A stretch of DNA of 64,000 nucleotides, taken from Stegostoma tigrinum. Its lineage: Eukaryota. The DNA lies in the NCBI RefSeq assembly GCF_030684315.1, contig NC_081386.1:12285914-12349913 (forward strand). Reading direction: 5' to 3'. How positions within the stretch are numbered: position 1 is the stretch's first letter; each line of letters begins with the position of its first letter. Below the pieces are notes generated by a model. It did not search any database. It was not told the DNA's origin and saw only the letters and a program-made list of their open reading frames with translations. Both the position numbers and the translations under genes were made by a program. Shown here one piece after another: positions 3,061 to 59,390 of this stretch.

Positions 3061-3270
3061 ATCCCTCATCTGATAACTGCTGACAACCAGGACAAGCTGC
3101 TTCTTTGCATCTGTTTTAAACAGGAGGGCAAGATAGGAATATTGCGTGCCTTTAAAATGCAGCTGAGGGAAGGCAAGACATAGATGCAGCGAGCATTCAA
3201 ATAGGCACTAATGAACTGTGTGCTAAGACAGCAAGTGAGCAGCTCTGAAATGCAGCCTGGTCCTGTCTAT

Positions 3271-3467
3271 GATAACAAAGTGTGAAGCTGGATAAACACA
3301 GCAGGCCAAGCAGCATCTCAGGAGCACAAAAGCTGATGTTTCGGGCCTAGACCTAGGCCCGAAAAGTCAGACTTTGTGCTCCTGAGATGTTGCTTGGCCT
3401 GCTGTGTTCATCCAGCTTCACACTTTGTTATCTTGGATTCTCCAGCATCTGCAGTTCCCATTATCTC
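3271..3467. mobile_element. Fold-back Penelope family 1 mini-insertion
   Basis: Inverted arms gataacaaagtgtgaagctgga...ggcctag / ctaggccc...cactttgttatc; ~35-nt tail on the right arm only; direct repeat ctggtcctgt at 3257-3266 and 3467-3476. Confidence 0.9.
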
Positions 3468-3509
3468 TGGTCCTGTGCGTGAGCTGGGCCTTTTTAAAAA
3501 ATGAAGGCC

Positions 3510-3835
3510 TCGTGGTATTATCACTACACTGTTAATCTAGAGACCCAAATAATGCTTTAGGGACCCCAGTTCAAATCCTCCCATGGCTGATAGTAGAATT
3601 TGAATTCAATAAAAATCTGGAATTAAGTGTTCAATGATAACCATTGTCAAAAACAAAACCCACCTTGTTCATTAATGCCTTTTAGGGGAGGAAACTGCTA
3701 TCCTTAACTGATCTGGCCTACAAGTGTCTCCAGATCCACAGAAATGTGGTTGACTCTTAACTGCCGTCTGGGATGGGCGATAAATGCTGGCCCAACCAGC
3801 ACTGCCCTCATCCCATGAATGAGTTTTTAAAAAAG
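3510..3835 (+). mobile_element. tRNA-derived SINE family A
   Basis: gtggtattatcactacactgttaatctagagaccc...catcccatgaatgag. Confidence 0.85.
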
Positions 3836-5464: not shown

Positions 5465-5625
5465 GAGATATAGGAACTGCCAATGCTGGAGAATCTGAAA
5501 TAATAAGGTGTAGAGCTGGTTGAACATTCAAGAAAAATCAAGGGTTCAGACCGGAAACGTCAGCTTTCCTGCTCTTCTGATGCTGCCTGGCCTGCTGTGT
5601 TCATTCAGCTCTACACCTTCTTATC
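5465..5625. mobile_element. Fold-back Penelope family 1 mini-insertion
   Basis: Tailed left arm gagatataggaactgc..., right arm ends ccttcttatc; TSD tctaatgaacgca (5452-5464) / tctaatgaataca (5626-5638), differing only at a CpG. Confidence 0.85.
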
Positions 5626-6726
5626 TCTAATGAATACAACAGTGCAACACGTGATAAGACAAAGTGAACCTTAGATTACAATGTTGTTAGGATTCCTAAA
5701 GGTACAAAGAGATTTGATTTCCTTTTGAGGGCATGCAATGAGTTGCTCCGAAGAGTGGTACAAAATAAAAGTACTAATTGCCTGGCCTTGCAAAGGTCAA
5801 ACTTTCCTTTATCATTTTGATTCTGGTCCCTAGCTACTTTGGACTATACCGATAAAAGATTCTATGGTGCAGCTGAAAAATCAAGTCCATCTTTATAGGT
5901 TTACAAATGATAGATGCTGGTGCTGACAGGCAATGTCCATTAATACGATGATAAACTTAGCAGAATGCTAATGTGGAACCTTCCTGAAGATGGCTATTGC
6001 ACTTTGCACAGAGAACACCCTGTGTAAATGGATGCGAGCCAGAATATTTTCCAGCAGATAAAATATGGAATGAGTCAGTCATGACCATGGCATCAGACAA
6101 TCAACCATATCAGAGTAAGGTCAGGCTGCCACATTTAACTGTAATACTTTGAGTATCTGCTTTCCTAGCCTTGGCCTAGTTTGCCCTTCAGTTTTGGCAG
6201 TGAGACAAGTTGTATAATGATATGGCTCTATGATTTATAGAAAGGCATGCTTTTCTTCTGATATCTTTATATACTGAGGACTAAGATTCTTTCCCTTACA
6301 TTAAAGAGCCTTTTCCTGCTTTCTGCGCTGAGTCATATTACAAACAGAAAATGCAATTAAAATGAACAAACCAGGGATGCAAGAAATTCTGAACTGGGCT
6401 GAAATTAATTATGACAATTTTTATTCCATGCACCTCCTCAAAAAGATCAATTCATTATAAGGTATAAAACTGGGTGATCCTAATTGGTTTTGATCAATGT
6501 TAATGTGTCTGCATATGTTGCAAAAAGAGAAATAGCTTCATTATGTTGACAATATTCCGACTCACCAAAGTAAAATTTATGGTCACAAATTTCTGCTTGG
6601 TTACACTGAGTGTCTTGATGCGGTTTGTTTAAACCAGTGCAAAAGATGGCAGAATTTGCACAGCACAAATTGAATTTCCCCAGTTCTTTTTGTGCTACTT
6701 TCAGAAACAGTTACTATTAATAGCTG

Positions 6727-6838
6727 ATTTATTAATATCCGTTCCAGAAGAAGGGTCTCCACCCAAAACATCAGCTTTCCTGCTCCTCTGATGCTGCTTG
6801 GCCTGCTGTGTTCATCCAGCTCTATACCGTGTTATCTC
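6727..6838 (+). mobile_element. Penelope family 1 terminal mini-insertion with decayed hammerhead
   Basis: ccagaagaagggtctccacccaaaacatcagc is a decayed CTGATGAAGGG...CCCGAAACGTCAGC; perfect 14-bp TSD actattaatagctg at 6713-6726 and 6839-6852. Confidence 0.88.
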
Positions 6839-16329: not shown

Positions 16330-16882
16330 ATATGAAAGCAAGAGTAGGTCTATATCATGGCTGATGTTCATCCAAACACCATTTTCCCTCATTATCCCCA
16401 TAATCCATTGGTGTCATTAGTATCAAAAAGCCTATCTATCTCTAGAGTCACACATCATGAAAACAGATCCTTCGGTGCAACCAGTCTATGCCAAACATAA
16501 TTCCAAATTAAACTGGTCCCACCTGCCTGCTCCTGGCCCATATCCCTCCAAACCTTTCCTATTCATGTACTTAGCTAAATGACTTTTAAATATTGTAATT
16601 TTACCCACATCCACCACTTCCTCAGAAAGATCATTCTGCACATGAACCACCCTCTGGGTAAAAAATTGCTCCTCGTCTTTTTTAAATCTTTCTCTTCTCA
16701 TCTTAAAAGCGTGCCCTTTAGTCTTGAAATTCCCCATCTAAGGGTAAAGACAACTACCATAAACTCTATCTCTAACTCTCATAACTTTGGAAAAATGTAT
16801 AACTGATCTTCTCTGACCCTCTAGGGCAGAAAAATTGGGTAAGATCTGATAAAGGTCTTAAATTGCTTGTAGTTTTTCTAAG
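16330..16882 (-). mobile_element. Nested CR1 3' fragments; the older one continues at 19622-19930
   Basis: ORF 16486-16737 (KTKGHAFKMRRERFKKD..FFTQRVV) is a CR1 C-terminus; the older CR1 resumes after the Penelope TSD (gactcctttagttttagactc). Confidence 0.75.
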
Positions 16883-16980
16883 TGACAATGGGAACTGCAG
16901 ATGCTGGAGAATCCAAGATAATAAAATGTGAGGCTGGATGAACACAGCAGGCCCAGCAGCATCTCAGGAGCACAAAAGCT

Positions 16981-17008
16981 GACGTTTCGGGCCTCGACCC
17001 TTCATCAG
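16981..17008 (-). ncRNA. Minimal type I hammerhead ribozyme core
   Basis: Minus strand CTGATGA-A-GGGT-CGAG-GCCC-GAAA-CG-TC; palindromic ACGT in place of stem III, as known for PLE minimal hammerheads. Stem I is only ~2 bp. Confidence 0.75.
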
Positions 17009-17467
17009 AGAGGGGGATGGGGTGAGGGTTCTGGAATAAATAGGGAGAGAGGGGGAGGCGGACCGAAGATGCTGCCAGACCCGCTGAGCTTTAACAGCAA
17101 TTTCTGTTTTTATTCCTGATTTACAACATTTGCAGAACTTTTCAATTTTTATCAAGAGGTCATTATCATTGCTTTTAATGAAAAGTATCTGATAGCAAAA
17201 TAAATGACTCTTGTTTGAATTCAGGTAGAAATGAAAGCTCCATAAACAAATGTTTGAAAAATGTATTATTTAAGAAACTGTAACTTTTTCAATGCAATGG
17301 AGAAATATGACATTCCACAAATATAAAATTTGCTTTTCAGATCCAGTGAGATTACTTACCAGCAATTGCGAAGTCAGTTGACAACTGTTGACAATCCAGC
17401 CACATCTTCTTCAATATAATTAATTGTGAGACTGGATGAACACAGCAGGCTCAGGAGCACAAAAGCT

Positions 17468-17495
17468 GACGTTTCGGGCCTAGACCCTTCATCAG
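17468..17495 (-). ncRNA. Minimal type I hammerhead ribozyme core
   Basis: Minus strand CTGATGA-A-GGGT-CTAG-GCCC-GAAA-CG-TC. Confidence 0.75.
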
Positions 17496-17659: not shown

Positions 17660-18678
17660 TTAGTAGGTAGGAGATGGAGGTGCGGCTTGGGGTGGTAGGA
17701 AGGGATAGGTGAGAGGAAGAACAGGTAAGGGAAGCAGAGACAGGTTGGACTGGTTTTGGGATGCGGTGGGTGGAGGGGAAGAGCTGGGCTGGTTGTGTGG
17801 TGCAGTGGGGGGAGGGGACAAACTGGGCTGGTTTTGGGATGCGGTGGGGGAAGGGGAGATTTGGAAGCTGGTGAAGTCCACATTGATACCATTGGGCTGC
17901 AGGGTTCCCAAGTGGAATATGAGTTGCTGTTCCTGCAACCTTCGGGTGGCATCATTGTGGTACTGCAGGAGGCCCATGATGGACATGTCATCTAGAGAAT
18001 GGGAGGGGGAGTGGAAATGGATTGCGACTGAGAGGTGCAGTTGTTTATTGCGAACCGAGCGGAGGTGTTCTGCAAAGCGGTTCCCAAGCCTCCGCTTGGT
18101 TTCCCCAATGTAGAGGAAGCCACACCGGGTACAATGGATGCAGTATACCACATTGGCAGATGTGCAGGTGAACCTCTGCTTAATATGGAAAGTCATTTTG
18201 GGGCCTGGGATAGGGGTGAGGGAGGAGGTGTGGGGGCAAGTGTAGCATTTCCTGCGGTTGCAGGGGAAAATGCCGGGTGTGGTGGGGTTGGGGGGCAGTG
18301 TGGAGCGAACAAGGGAGTCACGGAGAGAGTGGTCTCTCCGGAAGGCAGACAAGGGTGGGGATGGAAAAATGTCTTGGGTGGTGGGGTCAGATTGTAGATG
18401 GCAGAAGTGTCAGAGGATGATGCGTTGTATCCGGAGGTTGGTGGGGTGGTGTGTGAGAACGAGGGGGATCCTCTTTGGGCGGTTGTGGCGGGGGCGGGGT
18501 GTGAGGGATGTGTTGCGGGAAATGCGGGAGGCGCAGTCAAGGGTGTTCTCGGCCACCGTGGGGGGAAAGTTGCGGTCCTTGAAGAACTTGGACATCTGGG
18601 ATGTGCGGGAGCAGAATTCCTCATCGTGGGAGCAGATGCAGCGGAGGCGGAGGAATTGGGAATAGGAGATGGAATTTT
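17660..18678 (-). pseudogene. Penelope polyprotein C-terminal part: RT thumb/linker, Zn knuckle and GIY-YIG endonuclease
   Basis: ORFs 18410-18595 and 17660-18352 are in one frame, split by a single TGA; motifs IPLVLTHHP, CNRRKCYTCPH and NVVYCIHCTRCGFLYIGETKRRLGNRFAEH...HF. Confidence 0.9.
17745..17860. repeat. ~39-bp tandem repeat (3 units) in the Penelope 3' region, mirrored at ~19170-19285
   Basis: Encodes TASQNQPSLSPPP / TAPHNQPSSSPPP / TASQNQSN. Confidence 0.8.
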
Positions 18679-18764: not shown

Positions 18765-19143
18765 CTGTTCACTTCACCAACAATTTCACCCCAACCTTCA
18801 GTTCACCTGGGCACTTCCCTCACCTTCCTGGACCTCTCAGTCTCCATCTCAGGCAACCAGCTTGTAACTGATGTCCATTTCAAGCCCACCAACTCCCACA
18901 GCTACCTAGAATACACCTCCTCCCACCCACCCTCCTGCAAAAATTCCATCCCCTATTCCCAATTCCTCCGCCTCCGCCGCATCTGCTCCCACAATGAGGC
19001 ATTCCATTCTCGCACATCCCAGATGTCCAAGTTCTTCAAGGACCGCAGCTTTCCCCCCACAGTGGTTGAGAATGCCCTTGACCGCGTATCCTGCATTTCC
19101 CGCCACACATCCCTCTCACCCCGCCCCTGCCACAACCGCCCAA
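18765..19143 (+). pseudogene. Penelope RT C-terminal fragment in the inverted arm; endonuclease deleted
   Basis: LTFLDLSVSISGNQLVTDVHFKPTNSHSYLEYTSSHPPSCKNSIPYSQFLRLRRICS contains the PLE RT motifs FLD, KPT, SSHP and RLRRICS. Confidence 0.9.
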
Positions 19144-19530
19144 TGTGGACTTCACCAGCTTCAAAATCTACCCTTCCCCCACCGCATCCCAAAACCAGCC
19201 CAGTTTGCCCCCTCCCCCCACTGCACCACACAACCAGCCCAGTTCTTCCCCTCCACCCACTGCATCCCAAAACCAGTCCAACCTATCTCTGTTTCCCTAA
19301 CCTGTTCTTCCTCTCACCCATCCCTTCCTCCCTACCCAATCCGCACCTCCATCTCCTACCTACTAACCTTATCCCACCTCCTTGACCTGTCCGTCTTCCC
19401 TGGACTGACCTATCCCCTCCCTACCTCCCCACCTATACTCTCCTCTCCACCTATCTTCTTTTCTCTCCATCTTCGGTCCGCCTCCCCCTCTCTCCCTATT
19501 TATTCCAGAACCCTCACCCCATCCCCCTCT

Positions 19531-19558
19531 CTGATGAAGGGTCTAGTCCCGAAACGTC
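19531..19558 (+). ncRNA. Minimal type I hammerhead ribozyme core
   Basis: CTGATGA-A-GGG-TCTAGT-CCC-GAAA-CG-TC. Confidence 0.72.
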
Positions 19559-20376
19559 AGCTTTTGCGTTCCTGAGATGCTGCTGGGCCTGCTGTGTTCT
19601 TCCAGCCTCACATTTTATTATCTTGTAGTTTTTCTAAGACTGACTCCTTTAGTTTTAGACTCACCAACTGCCTCCACCGAAAAATAATACCCAACCAGTG
19701 GAAATGACCAATCCATCCCTGTCTGGTCCTTTACGAATTTTGTAAGTTTCAACGACGCCACTTCATTCTTGTAAGTTCCAGAGAATACAAGCCTGGTCTC
19801 CTCAAGCCCCTCCTCATTAGACAGTCCCACCATTGAAGGAATCAGTCTGGTGATTCTTCACCGCAATCCCGCGCACACACAAGCATCCTTCCTTATGTAA
19901 GGGGACCAAAAGCATGCAGAATGCTCCAGAATCTTCACAGAAACAGGGACCTCTCATATGTTATTGACATGTTAATTCTCGCATATAGGTTTAATTGTCA
20001 AACACAGCAATATTAATTATTTCAAAACCAAACATTCAAAACATATCAGTGACCTGAAATTTAGCTTTTCCTCCATATCCATGGGTGCTCCCTGACCTGC
20101 TGAGAATTACCTACATTATGTCAGTGAAGAATATTATGGTTGACAATATCCAAGGGTTAATGTGTGGGACTGTATGGATAACACGTCTCTTAATAATGAT
20201 GTGTATTAGCGCAGGTTTGAGAGACTTGGAGGCAGTTTGATCATGGCTTCAGCAGAGTATGCCATGCTTACGTAAAACTGTTTGTGGTTTCTTAATTTGT
20301 ACTTTAGTATTTTATGAACTTATCAATGGCTCAACAGTCTTTTCAGAGCTGAACTAACCGACTTAAACAGCTAAGA

Positions 20377-20563
20377 GCAATAAAAAACAGAAGTTGCTGG
20401 GAAAGCTCAACAGTTCTGGCAACATCTGTGAAGAAAAATTAGAGTTAACATTTTGGGGCGTTAACTCTGATTTTGCTTCACAGATGCTGCAAGGACTGCT
20501 GAGTTTTTCCAGCAACTTCTGGTTTTTGTACCTGATTTACAGCACCCATAATTCTTTTGGTTT
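20377..20563. mobile_element. Fold-back Penelope family 2 mini-insertion
   Basis: Arms aaacagaagttgctgggaaagctc...agagttaac / gttaactct...cagcaacttctggttttt; tail on the right; perfect 14-bp TSD ttaaacagctaaga at 20363-20376 and 20564-20577. Confidence 0.9.
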
Positions 20564-21511: not shown

Positions 21512-21848
21512 GGGAGGTGATTGCCTGATGGCATTGTCATTAGACTTTTAATCCAGCGACATAGGTTAAAGTTTTGGAACATGGGTTGAAGTCCTGCCAT
21601 GGCAGATGGTGGAATTTAAATCCAATCTAAGTTTGGAATTAAGAGTCTAATGTTGACTGTGAAACAATTGTTGACTTACAGGGAAAGATACCATCTGATT
21701 TACCAGTGCCCTTTAGGGCAGGAAATTGCTGTCCTTACGTCTGAGTACCATGTGACCCCCATTCCACAGCAATGTGTTTGAATCTTCTGGATAATAAATA
21801 CTGGCCTGGCCAGCAATGCCCACGCACATCCTGTGAGTGAATGCAAAA
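21512..21848 (+). mobile_element. tRNA-derived SINE family A
   Basis: gggaggtgattgcctgatggcattgtcattagac...catggcagatggtggaattt...gtgagtgaat. Confidence 0.8.
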
Positions 21849-23927: not shown

Positions 23928-24162
23928 AAAACAAAAAGAACTGCGGATACTGTAAATCAGGAACAAAAACAAAGTTTCTGGAAAAGCTCAACAGGTCAGG
24001 CAGCTTCTGTGGATGACAAAACAAGAGTTAACATTTCGGGTCCGGTGACCCTTCCTCAGAACAATTCTGAGGAAGGGTCACCGGACCCAAAACGTTAACT
24101 GTTTTCTCCTCCACAGATGCTGCCAGACCTGCTGAGCTTTTCCAGCAACTTTGTTTTTGTCC
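23928..24162. mobile_element. Fold-back Penelope family 2 mini-insertion with two opposed hammerhead cores (24030-24059 minus, 24067-24096 plus)
   Basis: Palindrome centred near 24063; each arm reads CTGAGGA-A-GGGT-CACCGG-ACCC-(G/A)AAA-(C/T)GTT; perfect 14-bp TSD ctgttttataaaga at 23914-23927 and 24163-24176. Confidence 0.92.
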
Positions 24163-24299
24163 CTGTTTTATAAAGATCTTTGCTTTCATTTCAGTTTGTT
24201 TAACATTCATTAGTCCGGTAGAAACTATTTGATTCCTGAACAAGTGCTAGCAAAGATTGACTTTTTTTTTGTTTCATTTTGTTAAATAAATCCAACAAT

Positions 24300-25809: not shown

Positions 25810-26760
25810 ATGTTACGACTGTTTTACAAACCCATCTGATTCATTAGTGTCCTTTAAGGATACAAAACTGCCATTCTTATCAGATCTGTCCTACATGTGA
25901 CTGAAGACCCACAGAAATGTGTTTGACTCTTAACTACACTCTGAACAGGCTCAGCAAGCCACACTGTTTATCAACTGCTAGCTGGTCCCAAATAAGAAAT
26001 GAAAGCAGACAGACCACTTAGCACCATCGAAGGCACTGGAAACAAAAGCTGCAAGCCCATTCCTGCCAACTCTGTCCCTCCCTATATCTAGGAGATAGAG
26101 GTGAAATTAGGAGAACTGTCTCACAGATCAGTCAAGCAACAGCCTAACTTTATGCCTAACATACAATTTCTCAGACAACGCCATCACTATCTCTGGGTAT
26201 ATTGTATCTCGTCAGCACAGTGTTGTATAGGCAAGAGGGAATTGCCCTGGGAGTCCATGAGGTCCCTTGGCATCAAGTAAACAAACATCTGGCAAGGACA
26301 CCTCCTGTTGATTATTACGTACACATCTCAATACCCACACCCACGGTATACAGTGTGAATCAGTGTAACTTCATATTGAATATCACATATTGTGGAAGCC
26401 TGTGACAACGTTCCAGCAACTGTACTGAACATGTGTTTCTCAGAACCAGCCAGACCCCTAGCTGAGCAGTTGTAGTACACGACAATGCTAACATCTGTCC
26501 AACAATTTGTAAAATTGTCCAGGTATGTCCTGTACACAAGAAGCAAGACAGATTCAGTCCAGTCAGTTACTGCCCTATCAGTTTACTCTCGATATTAGTA
26601 AGTGTTATCAAGCAGCACTTGCTCATCAATATCCTACTCAGCGACACTCCATTTGAATTCTGTCAGGACCTCATTTCAGCCTTTGCACAAACATGGAAAA
26701 AGAACTAAATTCCAGAGGTGACGTGAGAATGAAGCCCTTGGCGTCAAGGACCCCAATAAA
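25810..26760 (+). mobile_element. L2 LINE 5' and internal fragments (continues at 28621)
   Basis: gttactgccctatcagtttactctcgatattag (NYRPISLL-like); ends tcaaggaccccaataaa and resumes aaaactagagtcaacgagaatc. Confidence 0.65.
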
Positions 26761-29705: not shown

Positions 29706-29723
29706 GACTGACATCAAGGGAAA

Positions 29724-29853
29724 GAGATAATGGGAAGTGCAGATGCTGGAGAATCCAAGATAACAAAGTGTGTAGCTGGATGAACACCGCAGGCTAAGCA
29801 GCATCTCAGGCTGCTTGGCCTGCTGTGTTCATCCAGCTACACACTTAGTTATC
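29724..29853. mobile_element. Fold-back Penelope family 1 mini-insertion
   Basis: Tail gagataatgggaagtgcagatgctggagaatccaa, then arms gataacaaagtgtgtagctggatgaacac / gtgttcatccagctacacacttagttatc; perfect 16-bp TSD ctgacatcaagggaaa at 29708-29723 and 29854-29869. Confidence 0.92.
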
Positions 29854-30872
29854 CTGACATCAAGGGAAAACTGTCTGGTTCCAAGCTGGAGTCATACCTG
29901 GCACAAAGGAGATGGTTCTGGTTGTCTTGAATCCAATCATCTCAGTCATCATACATTACCACAGGTCTTCAACTGCTTTATCATTGACCTTACCTTCATC
30001 AAAGTGTCAGGAGAATGGTGTTCACTGGTAATTGCAATGTATTCAATATCATTCGCAACCCCTCAAATAACAAAATAGTCCATGATCATATGCAGCAAGA
30101 CTTAGACAATATTTAGACTGAAGCTGTTAAATAACAATTAACATTTGTGCTATAGAAGTGCCAAGCAATGACCATCTTTAATTAAAGAGAATCCAGCCAT
30201 CGTTCCTTGACTTTCAATAGAATTGCCATCGCCAAATTCCTCACCATCAACATCCTGTGTGTCAACATTGAATATCTGAATTAGACCTTCCATATAAATA
30301 TTGTTGTTATAAGGACAGGTCAGAGACTGGACTTAATAGAGTAAGTAAGTCTCCTATTCATTTCCCAAAGCTTGTCCACCTTCTGAATAGTTCAAGGCAA
30401 GTGTGTGACAGAATTAGTGCACACATTAGTGCAGCTCATCAATATTCAAGATGTTTTATACCATCTGCAATAAAACAGCTTACATCCACCATTCTAAACA
30501 TTCAATCCATCCACCATCTGTGCACAATGACTACAGTGTGTGCTACCTACAATTAACATTGCAGCAATTTTCTAAAGTTTTTTTGATAGCTTCTTTCAAA
30601 CATGTGACCTCTAGTGCTTTGAACAAAAAAGACAGTGAACACATGGGAACACAAACACATGAAAGTTTTCTCCAAGTCACTTGTCACCATGAGTTAGAAC
30701 TATGTTGTTGCTTTAGTAGCAAAGTCCAAGATCTTTAACCAGCAACGAACAGCACTATGTGTGTACCTTCCTCACGTAATCTGTAGCAGTTCAAAAAAAC
30801 CAGCTCACCATGGCCTTCTCAAAGTAAGATGGGCAATAAATTTCCCTCAAATTCCACAAATGAAAAAAAAAA
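29854..30872 (+). mobile_element. Second, older L2 3' part
   Basis: Colinear with 28640-29700 (ggagtcatacctggcacaaagg ... gatgggcaataaa). Confidence 0.75.
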
Positions 30873-31659
30873 TACACTGAGAAGAGACAATAGGAGCATC
30901 AAGGGGGGATATGTCTTCAATTCCCTGCTGGTTTAATGGGATTTGCCTGTTGTATCTTAATCAATACTTCTCATATAGAAGTTTTGCGGCTAATATAGTT
31001 GTCACAATTTACCTGAGGGCTCAAGTCAAAATATTTTTACCAGTGCTTCTATGTTCACCATGAACAAAAATAAAGAGCTGGAACTTTCACATCCCACCAG
31101 TGGGATTGTAGGCAGATTGTGCACCTTTCCTGCCTCCTAGCCGTCTGCCCAGATTCAATTTTACCAGCAGTAAGGATTTTACTGGCTGACTGGTCTACCC
31201 AGCCAAAAGAGACAGGTGACCACAAAAGGGCTATGCTCTGCCACTGCTGGGATTTTGCCAGGGGAGAACCCATGCCAACTCCTCAGCCCATTAACTTTCA
31301 TTGACAGCTTTTGGCAGACAAGTCGGATGTCACTCCTACAGGGGTCCTCAAAGTTCTCTTCTCCAGATTTTAACACCCTTCTTCATCCCTTCCCATTGTC
31401 CCTGGCAACCTCACCCCCTCCCTCACATCACTCGTCCTCCCCGACTACTATCCCCATTTACTGTTGAATCTAGCTCCATGGCCCTTCACCCTCTTGCGTT
31501 GTACCTCACGGGCAGTATGTCAGTAAAGAGGCAAGCTCACAATATCTTCAGTGCATCATACCATGTGACCTGAGCATATACAGAAATCATAGTCCATCTT
31601 ACTTCAGATCACTTGAAGTATGGCACGCTACTGAAAGAACCAACAGCTTAGAGGATAGG

Positions 31660-31958
31660 ATTCTGGGGACCCAGGTTCAAATCCTGCCACGGCAGATGGT
31701 GGAATTTGAATTAAATAAAATATCTGGAATTAAAAATCCAATGATGGCTGTGAATCCATTGCTGATTGTCGGAAAATCCAATCTGGTTGACTAACGTCCT
31801 TTAGGGAAGGAAACAGCCTTCCTTGCTTGGTCTAGCCTACATGTGACACCAGGCCCACAGCAATGTGGTTGATTCTGTACTCTACCAATTAGGGATGGGC
31901 AATAAATGCTGCCTATCCAGAAACTCCCTCATTCTGTGAATGAATAAAGAAAAAAAAA
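31660..31958 (+). mobile_element. tRNA-derived SINE family A
   Basis: ttctggggacccaggttcaaatcctgccacggcagatggtggaatttgaa...tgaatgaataaag. Confidence 0.88.
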
Positions 31959-36591: not shown

Positions 36592-36948
36592 TGGGGTGGC
36601 AGATGAGTAGTGGTAATGTCACTGGACTGGCAATCCATAGCCCCGGGTCAGATTCTGGGCACTTGGTTTCATATCTCACCATGGCAGACAGTGAAGTTTG
36701 AATTTTAATTTGAGTGAAAAAACAATCTGGAATTTAAAAAAAAACAATCTGTTGATGAACATGTAACCACTGTTGATTGGTTTTTATGGCAATCTCATTC
36801 ACCAATGCCCTTTAGGGAATAAAACCTGCCATCTTTACTTAGTCTGGCCTACCTGTGACTCCAGACCCACAGAAATGTGATTGGCTCTTAATTGCCACTT
36901 GGTCAATAAATGCTGGCCGACGAGTGACACCCACATTCCATGAATAAG
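36592..36948 (+). mobile_element. tRNA-derived SINE family A
   Basis: tagtggtaatgtcactggact...catggcagac...ccacattccatgaataa. Confidence 0.82.
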
Positions 36949-44687: not shown

Positions 44688-45963
44688 CCAATTTCCAGGT
44701 ATTGGACATCTCGGTAAAGGATTGGATGGGCTTTGTGGAATTCACAAGGGTTCAATGATAACCCGGACAGATCAAAGACCTTGATATTTCTAAGAGTTGG
44801 GAATACTGTCAGGTAAGTATAAGGAGGTCAGGCTTAGTCTAGGGGGTGATGGAGGGTGGGAGGCATTGGAAGGTAGGAGTCAGGAGTGAGACCTTTGAAC
44901 ATGGGATTGGGAGTGGCATTTATTGGGTAAGTAGTTGTATATTCATACTTATATGGCATTTAGTATTGTTTTTCCAAAGTATACACATCAGGAGCCATTT
45001 TGCGGACCAAATAGCACCCATTGCCATCAATTCCAATTTTATTTCTATTTTTTCCCCAGTCTATATAAATAAGAATTGAGCAAACAGAATGAGGGACAGC
45101 TAATAGTTAATTGGAGAGATTATCATTTAATAGGCACATCCTTATAACCCACTCATGTTAGGCCTTCATTATTTATAAGTTATGGATCTTCAAACTAGTG
45201 AAATTATCTTGTCAAGCAATGCTTTGTAAAAAGCACTTTATTCCCCCTGCCACTACTAATCTTATCTTTCCCACAGAAACTGTGATTTCAACAGAAACAC
45301 ATTAATGTGAGAAATGACAATTTTATGTGGTCAGTTAAAAATTACTTGGGCAACAATTATTCAATTTGCAATCAACTATAACTAGACAGGCAAATAACAT
45401 TATTCTAAGATAATCATTTTCCTAATACTTCCAATTTTCTTTGCCTCAAACCACCTTTTTTGATAATTACAAATATTTATCTTAATTGGACAGTGCTGAG
45501 CAACATCCTTCGAAATTCATATGTTCAACTGAGGAAAAAATTCCCAAACCATACATCCGCACTTGATTTAGACCTGGTTGGTAATCAGTAAATTAAAACA
45601 TGCCTTTGTTTTAATTTACAGATTGCTAAATGGGCCATACATTAACTGAAACACAACTGCAAAACAAATTAAAGTTTGGTTTAGATATTTAAATATAAGC
45701 ATCTTTCTTGTGAACACCTGCAAAAGATTACTATGTGTGTTATCAACTATCACTATGCCAACTTGAAAATACTGATTGGTCAGTGAAAGAAGAGGGGCCA
45801 AAGCCTTTCAGGGTGAAAATGTCTGATTCAAGAGGCCCACTTCAATATGCATGACAAGGATGCTTAAATGGCTGTACTAGTGCCTGTGTACCTTCATTTC
45901 GTGATGTAAGGAACACAGAAGCAAGAGAAGGCCATTCCAATCTTCAAGCTGGTTCAGCCATGT

Positions 45964-46272
45964 ATGGCTAAGTGGTATTATCACTGGACTGTTAATCCAG
46001 AGACCTGGCTAATATTGTAGAGACCTGGGTTCAAATCCCACTACAGCAGATGGTGGAATTTGAATTCAATAAAAATATCTAGCATTAAGAGTCTAATGAT
46101 GACCATGAGTTGATTGTTGGGAAAAATGTCCTCTAGGGAAGGAAACAGCCACCTTACATGGTTTGACCGACAAGTGATGCCAGACCCACAGCAATGTGGT
46201 TGACTCTGAACTGCCCTCTGGGCAATTCGGGGTGGACAATAAATGTTGGCCTCATCCCATTAATGAATAAAG
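45964..46272 (+). mobile_element. tRNA-derived SINE family A
   Basis: gtggtattatcactggactgttaatccagagacc...taatgaataaag. Confidence 0.88.
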
Positions 46273-59074: not shown

Positions 59075-59390
59075 AAGTTATTCATGGGATCTGGCTGTTG
59101 CTAGCTAGGCAGCATTTGCTGTGCATCCCTAATTGCATAGAGGACAGTTAAGATTCAATCACATTGCTGTAGGTCTGGAGTCACACATAAGCCAGACCTG
59201 GTAAGGACAGCAGTTTCCTTTCCTAAAGGATAATCAACAACAACGTAATTGTGACCATTCATTCTAAACTTTTATTGAATTCAAATTCCGGCAGCTGCCA
59301 TGATGGAATTCAAACACAAATCCACAGAACATTACCTGAGTCTCAGGATGAATAGCCTAAAGATAATAGGCCTATGCCAGTGTTTCCTCC
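59075..59390 (-). mobile_element. tRNA-derived SINE family A
   Basis: ttattcatgggat...ggtctggagtcacac...ttattgaattcaaattcc...ctgccatgatggaattcaaac. Confidence 0.8.

Follow-up and report, generated by a model that had tools for sequence, protein, structure and literature searches.

A composite Penelope-like element insertion in Stegostoma tigrinum whose spacer was probably copied from host DNA 32.9 kb away

Two hammerhead cores on the minus strand of a 64,000-nt stretch of Stegostoma tigrinum DNA, analysed as a whole and referred to here as the window, flank a 348-bp spacer, which we term the cargo. We conclude that this locus is probably one composite insertion of a Penelope-like element (PLE), in which the cargo was copied in from a local donor during integration. 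According to self-comparison and mapping on a long sibling copy, L047, the whole insertion is 2.74 kb and consists of four parts: A, cargo, B and C (Table 1).

Architecture of the insertion

A target-site duplication (TSD) of 17 bp surrounds all four parts, while B-C alone has none. The 17-mer is the sole match of at least 10 bp between the flanks and occurs twice in 94 kb. Over 156 nt, A and C differ by five substitutions; B and C are ~7% different. The 11-nt deletion of B is common to ~30 other scored copies and missing in A and C, so B likely derives from another template. Moreover, the divergence among A, B and C exceeds that between the cargo and its donor (1.7%), such that several template molecules would have been needed. 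Mapping on the sibling revealed no ORF-start sequence beyond the tail in the window element.

Table 1. Features of the composite insertion and its surroundings, in window positions.
Feature	Position	Strand	Description
Left TSD	16866-16882		CTTGTAGTTTTTCTAAG, 17 bp, of which 2-4 nt at either end could equally belong to the element
Piece A	16883-17071	minus	5′-truncated pLTR end with ~31-nt tail; 97-99% identity to 39 other scored copies
Hammerhead core A	16981-17008	minus	CTGATGAAGGGTCGAGGCCCGAAACGTC at 17008-16981; pattern search
487-nt stretch between predicted cuts (hypothetical RNA unit)	16981-17467	minus	Single copy
Cargo	17069-17416	minus	348 bp; inverted copy of G000:C43:12269731-12270078
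End fragment of older short repeat in cargo	17069-17128	plus	Complete only at the donor (L002:1775-1968)
3′ part of exon-like segment	17360-17416	minus	94-nt segment at the donor with GTAAGT donor-site motif, rank 9 of 38 listed
Piece B	17412-~18773	minus	Tail-less pLTR and 3′ half of ORF; 11-nt deletion after core, two internal deletions
Hammerhead core B	17468-17495	minus	CTGATGAAGGGTCTAGGCCCGAAACGTC at 17495-17468; pattern search
ORF remnant in B	17663-18409	minus	Open for 249 codons; Cys-rich linker and GIY-YIG endonuclease
Piece C	~18770-19625	plus	Inverted tail-less arm; ~585-bp internal deletion
Third hammerhead core	19531-19558	plus	One change in stem II
Right TSD	19622-19638		Second copy of the 17-mer, right of C

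The pLTRs of EN+ PLEs are described as occurring both directly repeated and inverted, one end optionally bearing a tail of 30-40 bp, and complex tandem and inverted insertions with tails are presented as standard (PMC8557442). The window insertion has this organization: its pLTRs are direct and inverted, A is tailed, and B and C are tail-less. Its TSD of 17 bp compares with 9-16 bp in sibling insertions, and PF01541 was found in B and in L047, the endonuclease of L047 lying C-terminal to a putative RT. The GIY-YIG domain of B matched this Pfam family with an E value of 2.2e-4 and 21.9 bits, narrowly missing the cut-off of 22.6. A Cys-x4-Cys-x2-Cys linker was seen in the window element and in L047; such a linker is attributed to Neptune and Nematis PLEs (PMC8557442), and a Zn-finger-like motif between RT and endonuclease is one mark of the Neptune clade.

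The sibling used for mapping, L047:3017-8074, is almost full-length; its ORF pieces measure 542 and 483 codons, and it has an inverted arm. Its same-strand cores are 3.5 kb apart with long ORFs between them, the usual pLTR-ORF-pLTR form. An RT-type YIDD motif was read by eye upstream of the endonuclease; Pfam returned no RT match. The same PLE family has left more short pLTR stubs and fold-backs in the window, at 3266-3468, 5537-5626, 6747-6837 and 29722-29856.

The hammerhead cores

The initial annotation had described two same-strand PLE minimal hammerheads, with the palindrome ACGU replacing stem III and only ~2 bp of stem I, and our analysis bears this out: both are type I cores in a pLTR, and their predicted cuts are 487 nt apart. 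Positions 16981 and 17468, which it gave as the starts of the cores, are correct as positions and are in fact 3′ ends, each being the last base ahead of a predicted cut. The core pattern matched three times in the window, as compared to 0.40 expected, and at least three matches occurred in none of 100 shuffles. The third core, at 19531 on the plus strand, had been overlooked, as had the 17-bp TSD. Core A has a 4-bp stem II, an extra A after CUGAUGA, the ACGU and a 2-bp stem I. Stem I comprises two contiguous base pairs in cores A and B, likewise in 33 of the 38 listed cores, and no convincing longer register was found. A search of the window against Rfam yielded no hammerhead family at E ≤ 1.

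An exact 42-mer around the core had 55,963 matches (27,938 + 28,025) in the 3.2-Gb assembly; the reversed control had none. The cores carry the conserved nucleotides, the extra base before stem II and the palindromic 15.2-16.2 positions of PLE minimal hammerheads and, judged by sequence, are standard minimal type I hammerheads of a high-copy PLE. They resemble those reported for metazoan PLEs in being type I, in the extra base between 9 and 10.1, in G10.1-C11.1, in the palindromic ACGU and in their pLTR location (PMC4209133). They differ in that stem II is short (4 bp) and helix I does not reach the 4-5 bp given for most families in that report, which also describes a D. virilis variant with a 2-bp helix I (PMC4209133).

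Origin of the cargo

The cargo is identical to its donor at 342 of 348 positions and lies inverted with respect to it, 32.9 kb away on the same contig. This donor was the single strong match besides the cargo itself, the other 26 matches being short and 70-93% identical. Queries with the whole unit and with the B junction likewise found a single donor among the best candidates scored. The initial annotation had proposed captured foreign DNA between the cores; capture is borne out, but of host rather than foreign DNA. By simple arithmetic, the chance of a random donor falling within 33 kb is ~2 in 100,000. This proximity favours local DNA or a nascent RNA as the template. At the junction with A, the cargo has a 3-nt microhomology (CAT, 17069-17071); at the junction with B, there is an exact overlap of 1 nt at the tail-less start site.

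The direction of copying is indicated by the absence of a PLE at either boundary of the donor and by the older short repeat, which is cut at the edge of the cargo and whole at the donor: the sequence passed from donor to cargo. This repeat is one of a second family, older than the PLE, of short inverted-repeat elements, in some of which a degenerate hammerhead core is present (L002:1775-1968; window 20382-20527 and 23953-24170). An Rfam MIR1888 match at 20406-20503 corresponds to the hairpin of this family. The window also contains a dispersed, tRNA-headed SINE-like family (495-763, 3502-3772, 21518-21785, 25828-25945, 31653-31891, 36609-36903, 45962-46222 and 59110-59379), one copy of which has a weak Rfam tRNA match at 45961-46045.

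The other end of the cargo falls within an exon-like segment of 94 nt at the donor (L002:1464-1557; G000:C43:12269694-12269787, plus strand) that carries an acceptor motif, a donor motif and one open frame. Its 31 codons gave a best E value of 1.2 against PDB sequences, no hit at E ≤ 0.001 among 1.84 billion representatives and no Pfam match. Across 94 kb, none of 142 scanned ORFs (the 140 longest among 544 unmasked ones, plus two) matched Pfam. The orientation of the segment would give the cargo the same sense as A and B; the protein searches lend this no support.

The cargo might instead have come from a read-through transcript. In such a case, a PLE at the donor boundary, since lost or polymorphic, would have been the source of B; its transcript would have run into the 348-nt flank, and the RT would have jumped onto it from a normal element RNA (A). 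The B-cargo junction, at the tail-less start site, resembles an ordinary insertion junction, B has its own 11-nt deletion, and the orientation of the cargo fits read-through from B. However, the assembly contains no PLE at either side of the donor, in run X1 a contig end of the donor type runs on as ordinary donor sequence, and an RNA source leaves the 33-kb proximity of target and donor unexplained. We therefore consider read-through transduction unlikely.

Support for a single insertion

The same arrangement could have been produced by two independent, adjacent insertions, or by an assembly error that pasted in donor DNA. With 55,963 cores, chance alone should give ~245 pairs on the same strand within 500 bp (arithmetic), and no contig among those listed, of which repeat contigs were numerous, bridged the cargo junctions. 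Nevertheless, one TSD spans all the parts and the spacer duplicates a distant locus rather than local flank. Run X1 contigs cover both outer junctions of the insertion, and a run X3 contig carries the window's letters over 17096-17343, although these runs may derive from the same individual as the assembly. Finally, the six differences between cargo and donor argue against an assembly paste, as well as against a brand-new event. Overall, adjacent insertions or an assembly error are quite improbable. Because the empty target site had no match in the assembly, it is the TSD that argues for a single-event origin.

Sibling insertions

We compared the locus with the 29 best-matching loci fetched out of 40 scored, from 624 candidates. 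An exact TSD of 9-15 bp was present in 10 of these siblings, and at least 17 had an inverted arm. Eleven inverted arms stopped at A-positions 151-158, the same range in which B and C stop. In none of the 29 were pieces on one strand separated by a non-element spacer of at least 60 bp within 1.5 kb. The first 100 exact cores on C1 included no same-strand pairs within 1 kb and three within 3 kb, as compared to 17 inverted pairs. Ten loci chosen for close core pairs yielded no second case of host DNA between pLTRs with a found donor.

Several of these loci are informative in their own right. Two of the three same-strand core pairs on C1, those of L044 and L045, were fetched, and at L044 separate TSDs identified two independent insertions. 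The spacers of L048 and L050 both proved to be element sequence. These two loci (L050:1467-1864 and L048:3725-4103) are mini-elements with different breakpoints, each with 97-106 nt of ORF start between same-strand pLTR ends, and by sequence are better candidates for non-autonomous, retrozyme-like forms than the 487-nt unit. A complex insertion at L053:1430-2489 has a 326-bp non-element spacer, which terminates with a duplicated tail and 11 bp of flank.

The 487-nt unit as a retrozyme

Retrozymes are defined as tandem units that each have a complete core and, functionally, by a circular RNA (PMC7229834; bioRxiv 10.64898/2026.07.22.740005). The initial annotation had read the 487-nt unit as a newly born retrozyme, excised by dimer cleavage of a minus-strand transcript. 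On such a reading, a promoter in the pLTR of B would transcribe the cargo and A, dimer cleavage would take place at the two cores, and the released 487-nt piece would be circularized. The two cores, both intact, share a strand, an internal promoter is reported for Penelope pLTRs (PMC2377424) and that of B may hold one, and animal retrozymes have been proposed to be pLTR-derived (bioRxiv 10.64898/2026.07.22.740005). Further, ~2.6 head-to-tail units of 99 bp at L044:5295-5552 (G000:C1, ~4383794-4384051) begin at the predicted cut and run to the tail, without the catalytic core; this array looks like repeated copying of a 3′ cleavage product. Genome-wide, the restart signal was not sharp: 1062 restarts were found at the predicted cut, as compared to 177 at -3 and 784 at +5, the +5 control including near-cut restarts. 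Two small assemblies of unspecified kind did not cover the cargo, which says nothing about its expression.

The structure and copy number of the unit do not support this reading. Among the best candidates scored, no other genomic copy of the unit was found: the cargo occurs only here and at the donor, from which it has drifted by 6 bases without leaving a daughter copy. No tandem array with a 487-nt period was present, only 156 bp being duplicated, and the unit lies inside one TSD-bounded insertion. The window element also lacks the ORF-start segment; by comparison, Anolis PLE RNA use is reported to need the first 172 nt of the ORF (PMC11167929). Where a canonical type I hammerhead has a helix I of ~6 bp and a short helix III, the cores have a 2-bp stem I and no stem III.

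The predicted minimum free energy of the 487-nt circle was -101.7, as compared to -98.4 ± 5.6 for 40 shuffles in a nearest-neighbour model, and thus no special circular fold is predicted. In a 637-nt context, the pairing probability of stem II was 0.003-0.004 and that of ACGU with ACGU was ~0, in a model without proteins or tertiary contacts. A forced hammerhead dimer cost 48 kcal/mol in the nearest-neighbour model, which ignores the same two factors. In the isolated core, CUGAUG pairs with CGUCAG in 83% of the ensemble, a misfold that shuts the core. The minimal hammerheads of metazoan PLEs are reported to have weak activity, cutting poorly even as dimers (PMC4209133), and eight of nine Xenopus dimers were uncut in vitro (bioRxiv 10.64898/2026.07.22.740005).

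Thus, the unit resembles the described metazoan non-LTR retrozymes in its two same-strand type I cores a few hundred nucleotides apart and its pLTR ancestry (PMC7229834; bioRxiv 10.64898/2026.07.22.740005), but differs from them in lacking tandem units, a family, canonical stems I and III and, by predicted fold, a structured circle. Tables of the 2026 preprint include retrozyme families from chondrichthyans (bioRxiv 10.64898/2026.07.22.740005). We consider a nascent retrozyme very improbable. A retrozyme caught at birth, in which an accident of PLE integration and a protein-aided double cut gave a 487-nt circle with host sequence that was never amplified, is no less doubtful. Were cutting and circularization of the 487-nt unit true, they would provide a direct route from a PLE insertion to a retrozyme, and integration errors would seed retrozyme-like circles.

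Discussion

We favour a templated insertion within one integration. On the plus strand of the window, the target end, A, cargo and B can be read as one continuous nascent strand, with C coming from the opposite end. Starting from the observed order of parts, duplication, donor and junctions, integration may have proceeded as follows. The PLE endonuclease would make a staggered cut at the target, and one target end would prime the RT at the tailed start site, giving A, which would stop after ~187 nt. Pairing over 3 nt (CAT) would then let the new strand anneal to the nearby donor and copy 348 nt, after which its new 3′ end would prime a second round on element RNA at the tail-less start site, giving B. 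The opposite target end would prime C, and B and C would then be joined. Such a scheme would involve three RT starts and one templated copy in a single integration. The hammerheads would be passengers of the pLTRs, their 487-nt spacing having been set by the point of the copying switch.

Some of these steps have parallels in the Anolis PLE protein, which in vitro is reported to cut both strands and to start reverse transcription at two sites separated by the tail (PMC11167929). In the same system, hammerhead cleavage depends on protein, and insertion in vitro can proceed without it (PMC11167929). The Anolis requirement for the beginning of the ORF sets that RNA apart from the window element, in which no part of the ORF start follows the tail.

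Templated insertions that copy nearby DNA are described at LINE-1 integration sites (PMC11702581; bioRxiv 10.1101/2024.08.27.596794). As in those reports, the insertion studied here has non-element DNA copied in from near the target, microhomology and a twin-primed inverted arm. However, it belongs to another retroelement class, its template is longer, its donor is 33 kb away and the RT apparently restarted on element RNA after the copy. Typical L1 templated insertions are under 250 bp and copied from close to the site, whereas here the donor is farther and the copy longer. The account in PMC13174262 offers general chimera models only.

Closer counterparts come from the rotifer Adineta vaga. 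Host DNA lies between the element body and the 3′ pLTR in Pen1_Av, and in Pen3a two direct pLTRs and one inverted pLTR surround host sequence inside the TSD (PMC3846280). The present insertion shares with these a unique host spacer and direct plus inverted pLTRs within one TSD. It differs in its spacer of 348 bp, as compared to 0.9-1.5 kb in the rotifer, and in having an identified donor; further, the layout is rare in this family (none of the 29 siblings) and typical in that account (PMC3846280).

The origin of such spacers is left unexplained in the rotifer work as reported (PMC3846280); here, a host spacer between direct pLTRs is tied to a donor 33 kb away. This locus, a single case of a recurrent by-product, suggests that, once DNA has been copied, the resulting end can prime the element's RT anew, at the tail-less start site.
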